Shown here: one piece after another, positions 651-58,158 of the stretch
Layout: every line of letters begins with the position of its first letter
Numbering within the stretch: the first letter of the stretch is position 1
From: a virus
Taxonomy: Duplodnaviria > Caudoviricetes
Reading direction: 5' to 3' (one strand)
DNA length: 64,000 nucleotides
Virus record (IMG/VR): IMGVR_UViG_3300033070_001349
Location: 1 to 64,000 of that record
Notes under the pieces: generated by a model
Told to the model about the DNA's origin: nothing
What the model saw: only the letters and a program-made list of their open reading frames with translations
The model's database searches: none
Program-made: the position numbers and the translations under genes

Positions 651-1682
651 ATGGCGCGAACCTTCCAGATCACCGGCCCCTACGGCACCTTCCTCGGTTC
701 GGCCCCCACGGGCTCCTACCGACCCAGGCCCCTCGCGATGTTGCCGCCCCGCACGTCCGTGACCCACCCCCTGCGGATCGACTGGGTCCCCCTCGGGTCC
801 GCGACGGGCGCCCTCGGCATCACCATCGCCCCCGGGAAGCACCACTACGGGATGGAGTCCGACCACAAGCGGGACCTCGCCGTAGACCTTCACGCGATCG
901 TCGAGGCGGGGGCTCGGGTCCTCGTCTCCCTGATCGAGGCGAAGGAGCGCGAGGCCCTCCGCATCCCGAACCTCCTCCGCGAGGCGGAGACTTTGGGCCT
1001 GGAGGTGTTCGCCCACCCGATCGCCGACGTGTCGACCCCCTCGGACCGTCCGGGCTTCGCCCTCCTCGTGCGCGAGGTGGCGAGCCGCATCCGGCTTGGG
1101 GAGAAGGTGGTGGCGCACTGCAAGGGCGGCCAGGGCCGGGCGGGGATGTTCGCGGCGTGCGTCCTCGTCGAGCTCGGGTTCGCCCCCAAGCGGGCGATCG
1201 AGCACGTCCGGGCCCACCGCCGCGGGGCGATCGAGACCCGCTCCCAGGAGCAGTTCGTCTACGGGTACGCCATCCACACCCCGGCAGACCGCGCCGAGGT
1301 CGCCCGGGGTCTCTCCGGGGACTCGCGCCTCGGGACGAAGTCCCGGGCCCTCGTCCGGGTGCTCTCGTCGGTCGAGAACGCCACCCGGCGCGAGATCGCC
1401 GCGGCCCTGCGGGACCCGGTCGGCGACAAGCGCCTCAACGACCTCGCCGCCCGCGGCCTCGCGGACAAGGTCGGCCGCCGGGTGTGTCGGGTCACGGGCA
1501 AGACCGCGACCGTGTGGGCCCTCGTGGGCTCGGACCCCAAGCCCCTCCCGAAGCGGGTCAAGGCCCCCAAGCCCCTCGTCCTGACCCCCGAGGAGCGCGA
1601 GGTCCTCCTCCTCGACCTCGTGGAGACCCCGCCGAGCGAGGGGCTCTCGAAGCTCCTCGCGTGGCTCCGCGCCCAGGTCTGA
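651..1682 (+). CDS. CDKN3-like / dual-specificity protein-tyrosine phosphatase with a C-terminal HTH-like region
   Basis: CX5R loop HCKGGQGRAG, PIADVSTP acid loop, GAIETRSQ motif. Confidence 0.85.
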   Translation: MARTFQITGPYGTFLGSAPTGSYRPRPLAMLPPRTSVTHPLRIDWVPLGSATGALGITIAPGKHHYGMESDHKRDLAVDLHAIVEAGARVLVSLIEAKEREALRIPNLLREAETLGLEVFAHPIADVSTPSDRPGFALLVREVASRIRLGEKVVAHCKGGQGRAGMFAACVLVELGFAPKRAIEHVRAHRRGAIETRSQEQFVYGYAIHTPADRAEVARGLSGDSRLGTKSRALVRVLSSVENATRREIAAALRDPVGDKRLNDLAARGLADKVGRRVCRVTGKTATVWALVGSDPKPLPKRVKAPKPLVLTPEEREVLLLDLVETPPSEGLSKLLAWLRAQV

Positions 1683-1683
1683 G

Positions 1684-2307
1684 ATGACCCTCCTACCCCC
1701 CGAGGCCCCGCCCGTGACGACCGATCACCCCCTCCTCCGCCTCGACTTCTTCGGGGAGATCCCCGCGTGGTTCCCGAGCCTCGTGGCCGCGAGGATGCGG
1801 GGGACCGCCCTCCTCGAAGAGGTCGCCGCCCAGCTCCTCGACCGGGAGCCGGACCAGATCCTGGCCGCCCTCCAGCCCCTCGCCGACGCCCACATCACCG
1901 AGGAGCTCGAAGGCTTCGACCTCGGCCACGTCAGGGTCCTCGCGCGGGACCGCGAGGCCGAGACCCTCGACCACTACCTCACCTCGCACGTCCACCTCGG
2001 GATCCGCGAGGCCCCCGCCCCCCTGGGGCTGTGGGTCCTCATGGCCGTGGCCTGCCTGGACCCGTCCAACCCGAAGCCCATCCTCTACAAGGACATCTTC
2101 GGTTTCCTCCTCACGGTCGCCCAGGGGCTCGGGCTCGGGGTCAACCCCAACCCCCTGGGCCCGGTCCTCCTCGTCTGTGAAGAGCTCCTCCCCCTGGTGG
2201 GCTTCTCGACCGGGACCAACGACAACGATGCGCGCTTCCCCGTCCACCCCAACCCCTTCCGACCGCGCCGACCGGAGCCCGAGGCCCTCGGCGCCCCCCA
2301 GCTCTAG
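1684..2307 (+). CDS. hypothetical protein
   Basis: ORF abutting the upstream stop, typical codon usage. Confidence 0.6.
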   Translation: MTLLPPEAPPVTTDHPLLRLDFFGEIPAWFPSLVAARMRGTALLEEVAAQLLDREPDQILAALQPLADAHITEELEGFDLGHVRVLARDREAETLDHYLTSHVHLGIREAPAPLGLWVLMAVACLDPSNPKPILYKDIFGFLLTVAQGLGLGVNPNPLGPVLLVCEELLPLVGFSTGTNDNDARFPVHPNPFRPRRPEPEALGAPQL

Positions 2308-2391
2308 AGCTTAGGGCGCACCGCCACGGGGCCACGGCTACGAGACGATCTAGTGGCCGACCCGATGCCCGTTCGTGTAGGGTCCCCCGCC

Positions 2392-2958
2392 ATGCTGACA
2401 GTCTACGCCGGGTGCATGGGGGCGGGGAAGACCGCCGTCCTGATCGACCTCGTCCACTACTACGACAACTTCGGGCCGACCCTGGCCCTGAAGCCTGCCC
2501 TCGACACCCGCTCGGGTCCCCACCTCCGCTCGCGCGACGGGCGACAGATCGACGCCGTGGAGGTCTCGACCCTCGAAGCGCTCGGGGGGGCGCTCACCCG
2601 CTTCGCGGAGTCATGTGACTCGGCGGGCAAGGCGGGCCTCGCCGTCATCGACGAGGGGCAATTCCTTCCCCAGGGGGCCCCCGGCGTCCTCCTCTCGGCC
2701 AGCATCGGCGGCCTCGCGGTGGTGGTCGCGGGCCTCGACCTCGACTACCTCGGGCGCCCCTTCGACGTGATGGCTCACCTCCTCGCGGCGGCCGACGACC
2801 CGCGGAAGCTCACCGCCTCGTGTGCCGGGTGCGGCGGCCCCGCGCGGTTCAGCTACCGCAAGGGCCCGGCCGCGCCCGGGGCCCTGATCGTGGTCGGCGG
2901 GGACGAGCTCTATGAGCCCCTCTGCGGCCTGTGCTACCGCGCTCGTCCGCCCTTCTGA
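2392..2958 (+). CDS. tdk: thymidine kinase
   Basis: P-loop GCMGAGKT, DEGQF, GLDLDYLGRPF, CxxC and GGDELYEPLCxxC Zn site. Confidence 0.93.
   Translation: MLTVYAGCMGAGKTAVLIDLVHYYDNFGPTLALKPALDTRSGPHLRSRDGRQIDAVEVSTLEALGGALTRFAESCDSAGKAGLAVIDEGQFLPQGAPGVLLSASIGGLAVVVAGLDLDYLGRPFDVMAHLLAAADDPRKLTASCAGCGGPARFSYRKGPAAPGALIVVGGDELYEPLCGLCYRARPPF
2607..2622. repeat. 16-bp dispersed palindrome, copy 1 (inside tdk)
   Basis: GGAGTCA-TG-TGACTCG. Confidence 0.85.
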
Positions 2959-2978
2959 GGACAATCGACACCACGGCC

Positions 2979-3006
2979 TTGACGGCTCCGCCCTTGGTGC
3001 TAGATT
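2979..3006 (+). promoter_or_regulatory. class-I promoter, leaderless arrangement
   Basis: AATCGAC-N9-TTGACG-N16-TAGATT-N6-ATG(3013). Confidence 0.8.
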
Positions 3007-3012
3007 AGGAGC

Positions 3013-5538
3013 ATGAGCACCTCAGACAAGAGCCCCGCCGCACCGCCCTCTCCCCTCTCGAAGGGGCGCTGGCCCTGGACCGCCCGATCCGTCCTGGTGC
3101 TGCACACCAACGAGACGATCACCCTCCCGCCCGAAACGGAGTACGCCCTCACTGAGCGGCCCTACTCCGAGACGGGGACTTTCCGGCCCGCCGCGCGACT
3201 GTGGCCGCACCACGGGCACGCCGGGAACCTCCCGCCGCACGTCGAAAACGAGGTGTGGGTCCAGCGCCCTGAGGGGCAGTACGTCGTTCGCATCCTCGGA
3301 TAGGAAGAGGTCTCGCCATGCCCACGCCCAAGAAGACCGCCAAGAAGTCCGCCCCCAAGCCCGGCGCCGTCATCCTCCCCCCGGCGCCCCCCTCCCTCCG
3401 CGACCGGATCGAGGCCGGGGAGTTCGCCAACCGCAACCCCTACGCCCAGCGCACGAAGGACCCCGCCACGCACGAGACGTGGCGCGCGGCCGAGACGGCA
3501 AACTACGCCAACTTCCGCGCCGCCCTCGAAGCGGACTACGACGTGGCGAAGTGGCCCCAGGCCCTCCGCGACCGGGTGTGGCGCGAGACCGAGGAGCGCC
3601 GGGACGGCTCGGGCTTCGCCTCCTACATCGACCGCTACGAGGAGATCGTGGCGGGGTACAGTGAGGCCTTCGACGCGGGCTTCAAGGCCGGGGAGGCTCA
3701 CGGCCGCGAGGCCGAGGCGGATCATCGGTCCGGGTTGACCGGCTAGGGGCTATGCGCTAGGTTGCGAACCGCGATGCTTACCCCGCCGCCCGTCGAAGTC
3801 CTCGCCGCCCTCGCCTCGAATACGGCGATGTTCTCCGCGGTGTCCGCCCTGAAGCGGATGCGGGACCGGGTCGAGAACTACCTCGAACACAGCCCCCTTG
3901 CCGACCCGGTCCGCCGCGAGTGGTGGACCCGGTGGCTCTCCTACGACACCCCCCACTGGCGCCGAGCCCTTGCCGACCCGAAGGACTGCGGCTGGGCGTG
4001 GTCGGTGTGCTTCATGGTGGAGGGGTGGATCGCCGGGGCGTGCCTCCGGGACCTCGAAGCCCTGCCCAGCCTGTGGTCGATCGAGACGGTCTCGGATGCG
4101 TGGAGTCAGGGCTTCCTCGTCCGGCTCGGGCCGGAGCCCGAGGGGCGCTATCTGACGCTCGCCGCGGACGGGGGCTGGATGGAGATTCTCGTGGCCGAAG
4201 AGCCCGACCCGGCCCCCGTCGAGGGCGCGTGAACCGCTCCTGGGACGTGACCCTCCGGCTCCCCGCGGCGATGCCCCTCGTCTTCCCGGCGGCCCCCCTC
4301 CCGTCGGGTAACATCGTCCCGTGCATCATCGCCCACCGGCAGAAGTTCGGCACGGGGCACCCCAAGGCCCCCTTCGTGCCGTCGCGCAGCCGCGACGCCT
4401 GGAAGGCCGCCCTCGCCGCGGGGAAGTCGCGGGGCCTGCGGCTCGTGGAGGTCAACGTCGGCGCCCCGCCCCACGCCGTGACGTGGTGGGTCGCTGGGGC
4501 CGTGATCTACGGCGGGGAGACCTACCGGCAGATCATCGCCGAGGTCGTCGGCCGGGGCCGCGCCCCAGACGCCTCGAAGGCCGCCCTCCTCTCCGCCCGC
4601 GGCGAGCTCGTGATCCACGATGCCCGTCAGGACGGCTTCGCTCCGCTCCTACCCGTCCTGTCCCTTGCCGCCGAGCCCGCCGAGCCCGAGGAGATCCCCG
4701 CCCCTGTGAGCGCCCTCTCCCCCCAACCCCCCGCCGTCCCCCACCGGGGGGAACCGCACCGCTGCCCCGAGGGCTGCGACGAGTGCAACGATCACGACTG
4801 CAAGCGCCGACGCCGCGGGGTGATGCCCGCGTGCCCCTGTCAGTGCCACGTCCGGTGCTTCGTCGCCGCCCACCCGTAGCCCATCGAGGACCCGCCGCCA
4901 TGCCCGAAGACCTCGCCTCTCACACCGAGCCGGAAGCCGCGTTTGGCTACCGGACGCGCCTCATGGGGCACTTCCAGCGCCTCGCCGACCTCCACGGCAA
5001 GGAGGCGTCCGCGATCCCCGAGGAGGGGGCCACGCCCCTGGACAAACTCCGGCGCGACGCCCACCTCCACCGCGGGGCGATCTACCTGTCCGTCGTCTCG
5101 ACCCTCTCGACCGACTCCCGGCGGGAGAGCCCGGAGGAGCGCACGGTGCGGCTCCTGGGGGTGGGGGCGAACGCCGTTCTCCACTACGCCGACCACCTCA
5201 AGGCGCATACCGCCAGGGCCTTCGCGGTCGAGCTCGTGGGCCGCATGAAGGACGCCCTGGCGCGGGTCGATCGGGAGTACCTCACCCTCGCCGAGGTGAA
5301 GACGGTCCTCACCGACGCGCGGGCCGAGGCTCACACCCCCTTCGGGTCGACCGTCGAGGCCGTGTACGAGGACGCCCTCTTCCGGTGGCAGAGCCTCGCG
5401 ATCCACCGGGCCCAGGTCGCCGAGGCCTTCGACGAGATCACCACCCTCCTCGACCTCCCCGAGGGCTCGACGCCCCGCGAGGTGGTCTTCGCCCTCCGGG
5501 AGCGGCTCGCACGCTCCGCCCTCGCTTCCAACGCCTGA
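3013..5538 (+). CDS. run of five hypothetical genes
   Basis: 3013-3303, 3318-3746, 3774-4232, 4229-4879 (Cys-rich C-terminus), 4900-5538. Confidence 0.6.
3735..3763 (+). promoter_or_regulatory. class-I promoter
   Basis: TTGACC-N17-TAGGTT with TATGCGC. Confidence 0.75.
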
Positions 5539-5578: not shown

Positions 5579-8284
5579 ATGCTCATCCTCACCACCGACC
5601 GCATCGAAAACACCGAACACGTCATCCTGACCACCCGGCGCCTCGCCGAGCTCGCCTCCGACCCGGAGCGCACGCGCGTCACCGCGGGGATGCAGGAGCT
5701 CGCCTCGAAGCTCAAGCCCTACATCGCCGCAATCCCGCGCGACGGGTGGACCCCCTTCCACGTCGCCCTCGAACTCATCCGGCTCGACTACGCCTCCATG
5801 ACCCTCACGAATGAGGACGTGAACTTCCTCGTGTCATCCCTGGCGGAGTACCCCTGGTCGGACATCTCGACCGACGAGATGCGCTTCGCCTGGGCCCACC
5901 GCTTCTATGCCATCGCCGAGCTCAAGGGGTACTTCGCCTTCGTTCCGCGCAGCGGCGAGGCCGTCAACGTGGGCGTCTCCCGGGCGCAGATCGAGCTTCA
6001 CTCCCTCGTCTGCGACGCCCGCCGCCGCGACTACGGCGCGGCGCTCGAAGCCACTAACCTCATGCACTTCGCCTCCAGGGACCGCGCCCACGTCGACTAC
6101 CAGACCCTCGTGACCGTGCGGCCCGGCTTCCTCGTCACGACCGACGGCGCCGAGGCCACGGTTGTCTTCTACGACTACGTGATCCCCTTCGGCCGGACCG
6201 GCACGGGCCCCGAGGCCATGGCCTTCAAGGCGGTGAACCCCCGGCGCTACATGGAGGCGGTCGCCCTCCTCCCGGGCAACAACCGCGGCACCGACGAGGA
6301 CCTCAAGGGCTCCTTCCGGCGGGACGACGCCCGGCCCCCGCACGTCGTGAGCAGCGACGCGATGCTCTCCCGCGCGACGCATCGGGCCCCCGGCGCCCCC
6401 CGCGGGGTCGACGGCCCCTTCGTCCCCGAGACCCTCACGCACCCCCTCCTCGACAGCGCGGACACCGCCGAGGAGGTCGACGCGGCCCTCGCCGCCGCCG
6501 AGGGCTGCGACTACTGCGGGCCGGTCCCCGACGCCCGCGACAGCGACAGCGACCTCATCGCGGCGATCCAGGCGGCCGACCCCGCCCTCAACCCGAGGCG
6601 CAAGGCCGCCGACGAGGAGAAGAGGTCGGTGCGCCACCTCGTGGGCATCGGGCGGCTCCCGCACGCCTTCATCGAGGAGCACGCCCAGGGCATGGCCCCG
6701 CGGGCGCCGCGGCTCGGGGTCCGGGGCGTGCTCGCCGGGCCCCCTTCGGGGGATCCTGGTCTCCTCGACCGCGCCGAGCGCCACCCCGCCTCGGCGGTGT
6801 CCGCGAAGCACCCCGCCGAGCGTCGGTCCGTGACCGAGCTCCGCAACAAGCTCTCCGAGGCCCTCGACATCATCGGGAAGATGAGCGCGGCCGAGCGGTC
6901 GGGGCAGGCCAACACCGACCACCGGGAGGGCTACAACCGGCTGCGGTCGTGGGCCCTGACCTTCCTCCACGGAGTGCCCGCGTCCTCCTTCCCCGGGCCG
7001 ATGCCGCTCGACGAGGGGGCCCCGGTCACCTTCGAGGCCCTCGCCGTGTGCATCCGGCAGCTCCTTGGGCTCTTCCCGGTGCAGGCCTCCCCCGACTACG
7101 TCGGCCTCATGGCCGAGTCGCCCGGGGTTCTCGGGGACGCCCTCCGCCATCCGGGGCCCCCGCCCATGGCCCCCGCCGACCCCACCGCGCTGCAACTGCT
7201 TCGCGTGGACATCACCGTCTCGATCCGCGACCTCGCGGGGGTCGGGATCGACGCCCTGTACGCCAAGGCGAGCGCGGAGGCAGTCGGCGCCTACAACGCC
7301 CTCCTCGCTCGGGCGTGGGCGCTCTTCCCCGAGCCCGGCCCCCAGCGCGCCCTCCTCCCCGAGGTCATCGCCGCGGTCCCTGGCCTCGCGCCGCCGAACA
7401 GGGCCGAGGTCCTCGAACGGTCGCGCCGCCTCCTCGCGGTCCTCCCCGGGGACCCGCCCGCGAGCGGTCAGGATCCGCTCGAATCCCCGCGGGCCAAGGG
7501 ATCGGAGGAGCCATACGACCTCGTGAACGACGGCCTCCTCCAGGCGTGCCTCGCGGGCCCCGAGGCCATCCGGGTCTTCGCCCTCGACGACTTCGCGGTC
7601 GCCTTCCTCGACCGCCTCGACGACCTCGGCCGCCTCGTCCGCCGCGGGCGGCTCCCGTGGGCCACCGTCTTCGCGTGCGTCGAGGCCTACAACCACTTCC
7701 GCCGCGCGGTCTTCCAGACGACCGGCGGCGGCATCACCCTCGGGGACCTGGGCCCGGTGGAGCTCCCCGTCGTGGACACGATCGGCAAGGCCGAGGTCCT
7801 GGTCGACCTCAAGGTGCGGATCGCGGAGATCCTCAACCGGCTCCGCCTTTCGCGGACGAAGCGCGCCCAGGATCCGAAGCCCGAGGCCCTCCAGACCCTC
7901 TCGTCGTCCGCGGGTGCAGCCCCCAACCTCATCGACGCCCTCCGCGGGGGCTTCGTGGGCTACCACCTCTTCTCGGCCCGTTCGGCGGCCGAGGGACTCC
8001 TCGGGACGATCGACGCGGTCCTCCACTTCGGTCAGGGCAACGAGCAGCCGTACCCCACGGAGCGGCTCCTCCACACGATCGAGGCCTATAACACCCTCCT
8101 CGCGGCGGCGGTCGCCGCGTGTGGGCCCGGGGTCCCGTATACGCGGTGGCCGGATCGCATGGCGACCGTCCTGCGCTCTGAGATGCCCGCCGAGCTCGCC
8201 CGGGACCACTACCGCGCCCTCGCCGCGGCGCTCCGTACGATCCTCTCCCTCCTCGCCACGCCACGCCGCGCCCCGCGGACGTGA
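5579..8284 (+). CDS. large hypothetical protein (~900 aa) with four C-terminal xAYN/xGYN helical repeats
   Basis: REGYNRL, VGAYNAL, VEAYNHF, IEAYNTL spaced ~120-135 aa apart. Confidence 0.7.
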   Translation: MLILTTDRIENTEHVILTTRRLAELASDPERTRVTAGMQELASKLKPYIAAIPRDGWTPFHVALELIRLDYASMTLTNEDVNFLVSSLAEYPWSDISTDEMRFAWAHRFYAIAELKGYFAFVPRSGEAVNVGVSRAQIELHSLVCDARRRDYGAALEATNLMHFASRDRAHVDYQTLVTVRPGFLVTTDGAEATVVFYDYVIPFGRTGTGPEAMAFKAVNPRRYMEAVALLPGNNRGTDEDLKGSFRRDDARPPHVVSSDAMLSRATHRAPGAPRGVDGPFVPETLTHPLLDSADTAEEVDAALAAAEGCDYCGPVPDARDSDSDLIAAIQAADPALNPRRKAADEEKRSVRHLVGIGRLPHAFIEEHAQGMAPRAPRLGVRGVLAGPPSGDPGLLDRAERHPASAVSAKHPAERRSVTELRNKLSEALDIIGKMSAAERSGQANTDHREGYNRLRSWALTFLHGVPASSFPGPMPLDEGAPVTFEALAVCIRQLLGLFPVQASPDYVGLMAESPGVLGDALRHPGPPPMAPADPTALQLLRVDITVSIRDLAGVGIDALYAKASAEAVGAYNALLARAWALFPEPGPQRALLPEVIAAVPGLAPPNRAEVLERSRRLLAVLPGDPPASGQDPLESPRAKGSEEPYDLVNDGLLQACLAGPEAIRVFALDDFAVAFLDRLDDLGRLVRRGRLPWATVFACVEAYNHFRRAVFQTTGGGITLGDLGPVELPVVDTIGKAEVLVDLKVRIAEILNRLRLSRTKRAQDPKPEALQTLSSSAGAAPNLIDALRGGFVGYHLFSARSAAEGLLGTIDAVLHFGQGNEQPYPTERLLHTIEAYNTLLAAAVAACGPGVPYTRWPDRMATVLRSEMPAELARDHYRALAAALRTILSLLATPRRAPRT

Positions 8285-8307
8285 ACCCCGGCTGACCTAC
8301 CCCTCCC

Positions 8308-9159
8308 GTGTTCGACCCCCTCCTCCCGTTCTACCCGAAGCCTGACGGCGGGGTGGGGGTCCGCGCCCCCTACCTCCTCGCCGTCTACCGGGTCGTGTCC
8401 TCCAAGGGGCGCCGCCCCGAGCTCGTTCACGAGCCCGAACTCCCGGAGGTGTCGGGCCCCCGCGAGCAGGACACCATCCTCGTCCGCGTCTACATGGAGC
8501 TCTCCCAGACCTACGGCCCGGGGTGGGTCACGGTCGGACAGGCTCTCGTCACCGCTGGCCGGTTGACCCCCGAGGCCGAGCGGCTCCTCGACCTCCTCGC
8601 CGCCCTCTACCCCCAACGAGCCCCCGACTCGAAGTAGGATCGCCGCCCCATGAGCAGTGACTACGGCATCGTCCACCCCCCGAAGACCCTCCGCGAGCGC
8701 TTCCTCGACTCGCTCTACCAGTCCCAGGTCGAGAAGGTGAAGGAGTCCCTACGGGGGGACGGGGTGAGCTTCCTGGGCCGGGCAACCAACCTGGACGCCA
8801 GGGTGGCCCACCGAGTCCTCGCCTCCTTCGGTCTCGCCGGGTGGCACATCGACATCGAAGACACCCCCGATGGCGCGGACTACATCCGCGCCACCGTGAC
8901 CGAGCCCTGCGAGGACCTCGACGTGGGCCGCAAGGCCGCCGAAGAGATGACCGACCGCCTCCGCACCCTCTGTCTCGATGCCCAGGTGGAGGTCCGAGGA
9001 GCCCCGGGGTGCCGGTGGATCCTCGTCGTCTACCGCCTCGGGGACGGCTCCCACGAGCCGGTGACGATGGCGTCCGAGCCCACTGACCTCCTCGGGCTCT
9101 GGCGCGTCTTCAACCTCTTCTTCCCCCCGCCGGTTGACTCCGATCTTTCTATGCGCTAG
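8308..9159 (+). CDS. two hypothetical genes
   Basis: 8308-8637, 8650-9159. Confidence 0.55.
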
Positions 9160-56470: not shown

Positions 56471-56547
56471 TCTCCCGTAGCTCAATTGGCTAGAGCACCG
56501 GCTTCCTAAGCCGGTTGTTGCAGGTTCGAGTCCTGCCGGGGGTGCCA
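56471..56547 (+). tRNA. tRNA-Arg(CCT)
   Basis: Cloverleaf GCTC/GAGC, CCGGC-TTCCTAA-GCCGG, GCAGG-TTCGAGT-CCTGC, 3' GCCA; U1:U72 mismatch. Confidence 0.92.
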
Positions 56548-56688
56548 TCCGTCGTCCAAGTTTAGGACGCTCGCTGATCGACCATCGGGGACGCCCGGGG
56601 CGGTCCGACCGGGGTCGCTCCCTGGAGTACCTGCGAGAGATGCTGTCTGTCCGCCCCTCCATAAGGGGGGCGGTGAGCAGCCGGACCA
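56548..56688 (+). ncRNA. tRNA-derived RNA with a 58-nt anticodon-loop insert and an expanded T-arm
   Basis: TCCG/CGGA plus CCA; D-arm GTCC/GGAC; CTCGC/GCGAG; AGAT; GCTG/CAGC. Confidence 0.55.
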
Positions 56689-56720: not shown

Positions 56721-57035
56721 ATGGCGAGCGAGATGGAGAAGATCCTCAAGGACCTCCCGGTGGGCTACATCGAAGACATGGTCTCCGCGGACCCGGCGAA
56801 GCTCCGGGACGAGATCGTGAAGGCGGACGCCCGCGCGGCCGAGATCAAGCGGGAGATGAAGGCCGACGAGAAGCTCGCGGGGGCCCGCGAGATCGTCAAG
56901 GACCTGTCCGGGGGCTACCGCGACGCCCTCAAGGCCCAGGCCGCCAAGGTGGCGTGGTGCCTCCACGAGCTCGACGAGAAGGGCCAGCCGGTCGACACGG
57001 GCTCCGAGGAGCCGGTCCCGGTGCCCGAGAAGTAG
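56721..57035 (+). CDS. hypothetical coiled-coil protein inside the RNA island
   Basis: AAGGA SD, 104-aa charged helical ORF. Confidence 0.7.
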   Translation: MASEMEKILKDLPVGYIEDMVSADPAKLRDEIVKADARAAEIKREMKADEKLAGAREIVKDLSGGYRDALKAQAAKVAWCLHELDEKGQPVDTGSEEPVPVPEK

Positions 57036-57039
57036 CTAC

Positions 57040-57164
57040 GGCCGGGTCGTCCAACGGCAAGACGACCGGAACCTCCCCCAGGTGAGCGCTTGCCCGGGAG
57101 GAGGGCCCGAGGGTAGATCGCCCTCGGTGGGGAGATGCGGGTTCGAGTCCCGCCCCGGCGACCA
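57040..57164 (+). ncRNA. tRNA-like RNA with the anticodon arm replaced by a multi-hairpin insert
   Basis: GCCGGG/CCCGGC plus ACCA; D-arm GTC-CAACGGCAA-GAC; T-arm GCGGG-TTCGAGT-CCCGC. Confidence 0.7.
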
Positions 57165-57264
57165 GCTTGACGGAGGCCCAGGTTCAACTCCGGGCACTTC
57201 TCCTCGGAGGGGTGTGGTGTAGGAGGTACGTCCCCCCGGGGGCGAGGCCGCGCACCGTCGAGCT
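57164..57264 (+). ncRNA. YrlA/Y-RNA-like circularly permuted tRNA mimic
   Basis: Outer stem AGCTTGACGG/CCGTCGAGCT; T-arm, loop-closed acceptor stem, D-arm in that order. Confidence 0.6.
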
Positions 57265-57292
57265 CCTCTATTCAACTACCGAGGTCCGCACC

Positions 57293-57547
57293 ATGAGCAT
57301 CCTGACCCGCCTCGCGCACCACCTCCACCTCGCGACCCGGGACTACCTCCGCTCCCGCGGGGAGACCCCCGGGATCTGGGGGGAGCGCCGCGAGCTCTAC
57401 GACAGGTGCCATCAGGCCTACGCCCAGGGCCGAACCTCGGAGGCCCGCGCCCTCCTCGACACGCTGAAGCTCGACCCGACGGGGATCGAGGCGGACCTCG
57501 TCCGCCTGGAGCTCCTCGTCCGCCGGAAGGAGTCGCTCGCCACATGA
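57293..57547 (+). CDS. hypothetical protein
   Basis: GAGG SD, ATGA-coupled to the AlkB-like gene. Confidence 0.55.
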   Translation: MSILTRLAHHLHLATRDYLRSRGETPGIWGERRELYDRCHQAYAQGRTSEARALLDTLKLDPTGIEADLVRLELLVRRKESLAT

Positions 57548-58158
57548 CCAAGCCCACCTACACCCCCCGCTACGTCGCCTCCATCCTCCCCGCCGGGGGC
57601 CTGCCCGAGCACAAGCTCTACGACTCCGTCCTCGCGACCCTGCGGGACGAGGCACAGTGGGACGACACGCACGACGCCCCGCGGTCGGAGTGCTTCATGG
57701 CCGAGGACCAGGGGGCGGTCTACTCCTACGGGTCGCAGGCCCGGGGACGGACCTACAAGGCCACGCCCATGCACCCCCTGGTCAAGGCGATCATGGACGG
57801 GATGAACGCCGACCTCAAGACGGCGTACAACGTGTGCGTCCTGAACCGCTACAAGGACGGCCACCAACACCTGGGGTGGCACTGCGACGACAGCCCCGAG
57901 CAGGACAAGGACCACCCCATCGCGGTCGTATCGTTCGGGGCCGAGCGGGCGATCTGGACCCGCGTCAACGGGCACAAGGGCCCGATCCCCGACGAGGACA
58001 AGTACCTCCTCGGCCAGGGGAGCCTCTTCGTGATGCCGGTGGGCTACCAGGACACGCATCAGCACAAGATCCCCAAGCACGACCGGGAGTGCGGAATGCG
58101 CATCTCCCTCACCTTCCGCAAGCTCGACGTGCTCGTGCCGATGCTGGGGGCGGGGTGA
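57544..58158 (+). CDS. AlkB-family 2OG-Fe(II) dioxygenase (ALKBH2/3-like)
   Basis: LNRYKDG..LGWHCDD, IAVVSFGAER, GSLFVM, HKIPK, RISLTFR. Confidence 0.92.
   Translation: MTKPTYTPRYVASILPAGGLPEHKLYDSVLATLRDEAQWDDTHDAPRSECFMAEDQGAVYSYGSQARGRTYKATPMHPLVKAIMDGMNADLKTAYNVCVLNRYKDGHQHLGWHCDDSPEQDKDHPIAVVSFGAERAIWTRVNGHKGPIPDEDKYLLGQGSLFVMPVGYQDTHQHKIPKHDRECGMRISLTFRKLDVLVPMLGAG

Follow-up and report, generated by a model that had tools for sequence, protein, structure and literature searches.

The window analysed here is the first 64 kb of an IMG/VR virus record that totals 148,482 bp, with an estimated completeness of 78%. Its G+C content is 71%, and every gene lies on the + strand. A T4-type major capsid gene (Pfam Gp23, E 2e-64) places the phage, as judged from the sequence of that gene, in a T4-like lineage, with a capsid identity of 35% or less to any cultured relative. 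In the whole record ARAGORN calls three tRNA-like genes, all located at 56.2-57.2 kb: Leu-CAG, Arg-CCT, and a partial call inside a longer RNA designated X2. The Rfam tRNA threshold is passed by the tRNA-Arg only.

These genes form an RNA island in which the gene for a 104-aa protein separates a further RNA, X1, from X2 (Table 1); the three nearest homologues of that protein (P0004-P0006) show 67-51% identity. X2 scores 22.8 bits against the Rfam tRNA model, with a 64-nt insertion, and is recognized by ARAGORN only in part. Its CCA end occupies 57162-57164, and the 101-nt element considered here (57164-57264) starts at the final A of that CCA. Downstream lie an 84-aa orphan gene, with GAGG as its candidate ribosome-binding site, and an AlkB-like dioxygenase gene; the two overlap at 57544-57547, and the neighbouring genes are tightly packed in general.

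Several features of the flanking RNAs are recorded in their own right. The unusual D arm of X2 (UCGUCAAACGGGAAGACG) and its AGAUG variable region are shared with a tRNA-Cys (GCA) in a related phage (G016, L237:2211-2281), and on this sequence likeness X2 may have been derived from a tRNA-Cys with an expanded anticodon arm. X1 contains GGTCCGA (56602-56608), identical to the vertebrate Y-RNA heptamer contacted by Ro60, and 15 nt downstream of it GGAGTAC (56624-56630), which resembles the GGGAGUAC that follows the motif in a YrlA-like RNA of the related phage G013. The heptamer is only a lead, as about 0.15 such heptamers are expected in the island by base composition.

Table 1. Positions of the features discussed, in the window unless a locus is named.
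Feature	Position	Strand	Description
104-aa gene	56721-57035		between X1 and X2
X2	57040-57164	+	tRNA-shaped RNA; acceptor, D and T arms and CCA end; anticodon arm replaced by ~64 nt
Closing helix, 5' strand	57164-57173	+	AGCTTGACGG; sits where the 3' strand of a tRNA anticodon stem would be
AGGC linker	57174-57177	+	stands where a tRNA has its variable loop (positions 44-48), by comparison with the tRNA consensus
T arm	57178-57194	+	CCAGG-TTCAACT-CCGGG; consensus T loop, G53:C61, one A.G mismatch
Capped acceptor-like hairpin	57195-57214	+	CACTTCTC-CTCG-GAGGGGTG; 8 bp, two G.U; abuts the T arm
TG spacer	57215-57216	+	tRNA positions 8 and 9
D-like arm	57217-57231	+	GTGT-AGGAGGT-ACGT; two Watson-Crick and two G.U pairs
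Segment outside the tRNA-like model	57232-57254	+	23 nt; C run 57232-57237, G run 57238-57242
Closing helix, 3' strand	57255-57264	+	CCGTCGAGCT; includes GTCGAG
84-aa orphan gene	57293-57547	+	ATG at 57293, 28 nt past the element; GAGG at 57281-57284
AlkB-like dioxygenase gene	57544-58158	+	follows the 84-aa gene
Polyangiales TROVE-linked RNA	L261:471-600	+	tRNA-shaped
Polyangiales TROVE-linked RNA	L262:2617-2747	-	tRNA-shaped
Polyangiales TROVE-linked RNA	L263:2584-2710	-	tRNA-shaped

Direct reading of the sequence confirmed the outer stem, T arm, capped hairpin, TG and D-like arm exactly where the first-pass annotation had placed them, while that annotation had left out the 23 unassigned nucleotides, the overlap with the terminal A of X2, and the non-optimal energy of the fold. 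The two ends pair over 10 bp with one G.U to form the closing helix. Within it, spacings are those of a tRNA: no nucleotides between T arm and acceptor, two before the D arm, and a 4-nt variable linker, the last C of which could make a Levitt-type pair with G57222 (position 15). The core bases of a tRNA are in place as well, i.e., U8, A14, G15 with C48, G18-G19, G53:C61 and T54-U55-C56-A57-A58. The island contains four copies of the T arm (repeat family D2), this one included; no other T-arm-like site in the contig is followed by a capped hairpin. The D arm is the weakest part of the element. By these features the element is of tRNA ancestry, although it has neither a normal-order cloverleaf nor an anticodon arm, and no call was made on 57164-57264 by the tRNA model (RF00005) or by ARAGORN.

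Read in a 7-bp register, the acceptor-like hairpin begins A1-U72, G2-C71, G3.U70, the last being the wobble pair that serves as alanine identity element in tRNA-Ala and tmRNA; as the hairpin is capped and lacks CCA, charging would require cleavage and CCA addition. A second exact TTCAACT occurs at 57271-57277, 88 nt after the first (about one tRNA-gene period), within a weak CCTC/GAGG hairpin that includes the GAGG preceding the 84-aa gene. A tandem duplication by way of this repeat was considered and rejected, as the local alignment is not significant.

The element is non-coding. GC3 in its region is 0.6-0.8 in every phase, versus 0.9-1.0 in real genes. A coding N-terminal extension of the 84-aa gene was likewise rejected (GC3 0.79, three AGG codons), and the downstream protein has a single database entry, of 84 aa, which matches a start at 57293. 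An intrinsic terminator was not detected at the element.

The arrangement of the arms is also non-random. In a shuffle test the T arm was held fixed and both flanks were dinucleotide-shuffled in 200,000 trials, using a descriptor that was defined after the element had been seen. A capped hairpin of equal quality, directly next to the T arm, was obtained 470 times, and such a hairpin with a 4-bp arm bearing GG in its loop two bases on arose 24 times; all three elements, including a 10-bp helix 4-5 nt upstream of the T arm, were never obtained. With thresholds relaxed to 7, 3 and 7 bp, the full architecture appeared in 6 of the 200,000 shuffles. Expressed conditionally, the D arm accompanied the hairpin in 24 of 470 cases, and the closing helix was then found in 0 of 24 (relaxed, 6 of 168). 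Coincidence of the whole architecture is thus very unlikely by this test, with the qualification that its descriptor is post hoc. ARAGORN proved non-discriminating in this respect: a construct un-permuted in silico was called a tRNA, and so were shuffled controls (1799/2000 and 615/2000), with D-arm shuffling hardly altering detection.

Comparison was made with the YrlA RNAs, to which the element had been likened in the first-pass annotation. YrlA RNAs are bound by bacterial Ro60/Rsr and occur in mycobacteriophages too (Chen et al. 2014, PMC4201824). Their T and D stem-loops, nearly invariant, are separated by an acceptor-like stem-loop. They carry near the 5' end a GNCGAAN0-1G motif that is the proposed Rsr contact, Ro60 contacting mainly the 5' strand, and are encoded within 4 kb of Ro60 on the same strand; Y RNAs often occur as adjacent pairs from one precursor, and in the M. 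smegmatis YrlA the capped 7-bp acceptor stem is cut by RNase P and CCA is added (PMC4201824). The likeness was borne out as far as architecture is concerned: T arm, capped acceptor-like stem, D-like arm and enclosing helix follow one another in circularly permuted tRNA order, as in YrlA, the helix is formed from both ends in each case, the tRNA core bases are shared, the T loop (TTCAACT, with G53:C61) fits, and a stem-loop is present between the arms.

Family membership and Ro60 binding, the remaining part of that proposal, found no such support. The Rfam YrlA model (RF02553, gathering score 69 bits) gave no match to the element at E<=10, whether the window, 1.6 kb, the 121 bases alone or the whole contig was searched, and neither did Y_RNA (RF00019) or Deinococcus_Y_RNA (RF01053), down to 121 bases. 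As a positive control, RF02553 gives the YrlA-like RNAs of phage G013 57.1 and 37.7 bits. The sole match of the model in the contig is partial (30.2 bits, 56514-56570) and corresponds to the tRNA-Arg/X1 junction. The 3' strand of the closing helix had been taken to bear a GNCGA-type mark of Ro60 binding, but that motif belongs at the YrlA 5' end (PMC4201824); the only GNCGA of the element, GTCGAG at 57257-57262, lies in the 3' strand and is followed by G rather than A, the 5' strand has no GNCGAAN0-1G, and the CGA/UUG pairs of the helix are oriented opposite to those of YrlA relative to the tRNA-like module. The GGUCCGA 5'-strand motif of the bulged Y RNA helix was not found in 57164-57264 either. 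Compared with YrlA, the element further lacks the YUAY/V region, carries a 23-nt insertion, and has a plain 10-bp helix rather than a bulged Ro60-binding stem, and its D arm, with two G.U pairs, is unlike the YrlA consensus GCUCA..GGUAGAGC, including the near-invariant loop. No Ro60 gene lies within 4 kb or elsewhere in the contig. The element is not a member of the YrlA family.

A homologue of the element was not found in the collections searched. With blastn against GenBank phages only tRNA matches were obtained, an exact 20-mer of the element had no match, and two DNA patterns (X1/X2 and a tRNA-Leu look-alike) returned chance or ordinary tRNA matches only. No syntenic locus was found in IMG/VR by way of the flanking proteins, and a metagenome scan with the 104-aa island protein yielded 23 loci, none with the RNAs. 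Relatives were chosen by capsid (60-67% identity) and their whole records searched; BLAST of the island against them matched tRNA parts only, and a covariance model built from the single sequence and the structure given in the first-pass annotation (R1) matched only itself among 23 records, 22 of them from T4-like relatives.

These relatives nonetheless bear on the origin of the element. They carry large tRNA arrays, with at least 25 tRNA-model matches in one 3-kb locus, versus the three tRNA-like genes that the present contig keeps, all in the island. In relatives G005-G012 (L239-L246) the YrlA model gives full-length matches of 25-34 bits; these were rejected as real YrlA RNAs, all that were inspected being junctions of two tandem tRNAs. 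Of the 245 different T arms counted in the arrays of relatives, five directly precede a complementary strand of at least 7 bp: one belongs to a YrlA-like RNA of G013, and the others (4/244) to neighbouring tRNAs that share acceptor sequence. A tandem junction resembles the element in that a few bases separate the T arm and 3' acceptor strand of one tRNA from the 5' acceptor strand and D arm of its neighbour, so that where the two genes are paralogous the T arm, a paired acceptor and the D arm come to stand in permuted order by descent. It differs from the element in having both outer tRNA halves and the anticodon arm, which are missing here, whereas in the element a 10-bp helix closes the module. 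The junction cases show that the raw material for such elements exists, and the sequence fits an origin of this kind in which the outer halves would have been lost as the lineage shed most of its tRNA genes. Separately, in one relative (G005, L246, G005:C1:94557-97662) two adjacent tRNAs with CUA anticodons, at 1475-1549 and 1552-1631 (-), are amber suppressors labelled 'Pyl' by ARAGORN, and may point to stop-codon reassignment or suppression in that phage.

With such an origin, the element might be simply a neutral relic, i.e., a decaying tandem tRNA-gene junction left after loss of the array, acting as spacer or 5' leader and having no function of its own. This is the strongest of the rival readings, if on balance an unlikely one. 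The reduction from the dozens of tRNA genes in relatives to three tRNA-like genes here is consistent with it, as is the formation of the same hairpin, by descent, where paralogous tRNAs stand in tandem in relatives; the second TTCAACT, at about one tRNA-gene period, could be a further trace of an array, its alignment not being significant. The G.U pairs, the A.G mismatch, the weak D arm, the stronger competing fold described below, and the failure of the searches to find relatives all argue for decay. However, the closing helix, 22 nt beyond the D arm, is not accounted for by junction descent: it has 10 bp instead of the 5 bp of descent, lies 22 nt off the expected start of the anticodon stem, and has the low conditional chance given above. 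No loss is seen in the T loop or in the bases of the tertiary core, and together with the closing helix this tertiary core argues for retention by selection. Moreover, about 128 nt of junk would be unexpected among neighbouring genes so tightly packed that some overlap.

Energetically the tRNA-like fold is not the preferred one. Its energy is -29.5 kcal/mol, improving to -40.8 when its helices are enforced and everything else is optimised, compared with -51.1 for the minimum free energy (MFE) fold, so that it is 10-21 kcal/mol less stable than the competing hairpin fold. In the MFE structure the closing helix is retained, a bulged hairpin covers the T-arm sequence, and a long GC hairpin at 57202-57241, driven by the C run and the adjoining G run of the unassigned segment, takes the place of the acceptor and D arms. 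Ensemble pair probabilities are 0.72-1.0 for the closing helix, about 0.34 for the acceptor-like hairpin and only about 0.2 for the D-like arm, and the closing helix persists in MFE and centroid folds with and without flanks. When the growing transcript was folded, the acceptor hairpin was part of the MFE structure up to 57224, and was displaced only once the C run had been made.

These energies bear on a second rival reading, in which no tRNA-like fold is formed, the MFE shape provides the downstream mRNA only with a stable 5' leader or a processing stem, and the resemblance to tRNA is coincidental. The whole-fold z-score of only -1.78 agrees with this, and at 71% G+C a lone 10-bp stem is common in this genome: a count over 24 kb gave 68 stem positions, nested registers of one and the same stem being frequent among them, for an estimated 1-2 distinct 10-bp stems per kb. 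Against it, the whole architecture is very unlikely to be coincidental by the shuffle test, the T loop matches the consensus perfectly and lies within a tRNA island, and a terminator-like helix, or one of RNase III length, was not found at the element. The reading is considered distinctly unlikely.

Further possibilities involve Ro60 itself. The first-pass annotation had noted that a TROVE/Ro60 gene is absent from the window, and this holds for the entire 148,482-bp contig (78% complete), in which TROVE was not found by Pfam, nor by tblastn or phmmer with two phage Ro60-like proteins; RtcB was not found there either. This phage lineage does contain Ro60 systems, with RNAs that the YrlA model is able to detect. 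Phage G013 (L250, G013:C1) has a divergent Ro60-like gene of 549 aa with TROVE and Ro60-vWA domains at 1606-3255 (-), flanked by two YrlA-like RNAs, at 1348-1485 (-) and 3775-3905 (-), to which the control scores of 57.1 and 37.7 bits refer; these contain GCCGAAUG and AUCGAAUG near their 5' ends and abut tRNA genes inside a tRNA array, much as the present element directly adjoins a tRNA-like gene. A strong Ro60 orthologue (TROVE E 7e-39, Ro60-vWA E 2e-62) is present in G009 (L251, G009:C1:166000-182000) at 7451-9124 (+), with no Rfam YrlA match within about 4 kb on either side.

The search for Ro60 proteins was likewise positive for the likely host group. The only cellular homologues of the 104-aa island protein (47-50% identity) are in four genome bins of Polyangiales (Myxococcota), which suggests from sequence that this order is the host group of the phage, and all four bins carry a TROVE-domain gene. 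Use of a Ro60 supplied from elsewhere is conceivable; related phages and the likely host group carry Ro60-like genes. In three of the four bins the TROVE gene is preceded, at a short distance and in the same orientation, by an RNA of 127-131 nt (Table 1). The arms of these RNAs follow normal tRNA order: the acceptor stem shows compensatory changes, a D arm, a T arm and an ACC end are present, and an arm of about 70 nt stands instead of the anticodon arm. They look like YrlA permuted back to tRNA order; the Rfam YrlA model matched none of the Polyangiales TROVE-linked RNAs. The fourth bin (L264, about 640-760, +) has a related hairpin with GGUUACUUC and AACACC, without the tRNA domain. The design of the Polyangiales RNAs is that of X2 and X1, not that of the permuted element. 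A model (R2) built from the three RNAs just upstream of TROVE genes gave the element 2.7 bits (T arm only), X2 29.1 and the ordinary tRNA-Arg 36.7; since the tRNA-Arg outscores X2, R2 mostly sees general tRNA features, and a specific kinship of X2 with the Polyangiales RNAs is not shown by these scores.

It is conceivable, if doubtful, that with the island the phage encodes a group of tRNA-shaped RNAs acting as ligands or decoys of a Ro60-like ring protein in the host. In that case X1 and X2 would copy the non-permuted TROVE-linked RNAs of Polyangiales, with the element as a second, permuted partner from the same precursor, and a phage without its own Ro60 would redirect or block RNA surveillance by host Ro60 and exonuclease. 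Should the island RNAs address a host Ro60-like protein, which has a low probability, X1 and X2 are better candidates than the element. Least likely of all is that the closing helix binds a Ro60/Rsr ring from the host or from the missing 22% of the phage, with the module recruiting a nuclease: the permuted order as in YrlA, the frequency of adjacent Y RNA pairs from one precursor (both PMC4201824), the Ro60 genes of G013 and G009 and the TROVE genes of the four Polyangiales genomes speak for it, but they are outweighed by the absence of any YrlA, Y_RNA or Deinococcus_Y_RNA match at E<=10 on 121 bases, the missing 5' GNCGAAN0-1G with a partial motif on the wrong strand and in the wrong direction, the dissimilar D loop, the lack of TROVE and RtcB in 148 kb, and the 2.7 bits from the Polyangiales-RNA model.

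Other known systems share individual features with the element. Two-piece tmRNAs are products of circularly permuted ssrA genes in alpha-proteobacteria and in some cyanobacteria and beta-proteobacteria. As in the element, a T arm, 3' acceptor strand, intervening loop and 5' acceptor strand follow one another, with a helix joining the flanks, and the 7-bp register has G3.U70. Unlike tmRNA, the element has CCTCG rather than CCA after the 3' strand, has no tag reading frame or pseudoknots, and is only 101 nt long; ARAGORN found no tmRNA, and no tmRNA family matched in Rfam scans at E<=10 (taken to include the permuted-tmRNA models). Phage T4 stable RNAs C and D (species 1 and 2) are RNAs of its tRNA cluster. 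They could be considered analogous in being small non-tRNA RNAs that lie within, and are processed from, a T4-type tRNA transcription unit; they are not, to our knowledge, described as permuted tRNAs, and we know of no sequence or structural relation to the element. Algal and archaeal circularly permuted tRNA genes give rise to real tRNAs via a circular intermediate and a bulge-helix-bulge cut, and retain the anticodon loop, which is missing from the element; we know of no such circular-intermediate pathway in bacteria. In common with the element, these genes have the 3' half encoded upstream of the 5' half (Soma 2014, PMC3978253).

Taken together, the reading tentatively preferred, with a probability of about 0.45, is that the element is a tRNA-derived, circularly permuted module kept as a tRNA-shaped processing element or stable RNA. 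In structural terms, a 3' tRNA portion, comprising variable loop, T arm and 3' acceptor strand, appears to be joined to a 5' portion (5' acceptor strand, U8-G9 and D-like arm), the 10-bp helix closing the whole, and its origin would most likely have been the junction of two neighbouring paralogous tRNA genes in an ancestral tRNA array. The element would be transcribed with the RNA island, directly after the X2 CCA end, and the host tRNA-end enzymes that release X2 would free its 5' end. By stacking on each other, the T arm and the acceptor hairpin might then provide a tRNA-shaped body marking the boundary to the downstream mRNA, one that RNase P could recognize by analogy with the M. smegmatis YrlA, and the RNA of about 100 nt so liberated may survive as a tRNA mimic incapable of being charged. 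Points against such a module are that no homologue was found, that its fold is the less stable one, and that it has four G.U pairs, one mismatch, a weak D arm and 23 extra nucleotides, the pairs, mismatch and D arm looking like decay.

One caution is of practical use: in phage tRNA arrays, ordinary tandem-tRNA junctions are a systematic source of false-positive YrlA-model matches at 25-34 bits. Along with the tandem-junction cases, the element illustrates how YrlA-type RNAs could be derived in a simple way from tRNA arrays. Its interest would be minor were it only a relic. If functional, it would add a second, independent example of circularly permuted tRNA mimicry outside the YrlA family, and this in a phage that retains several tRNA-shaped RNAs while nearly all its true tRNA genes have been given up.
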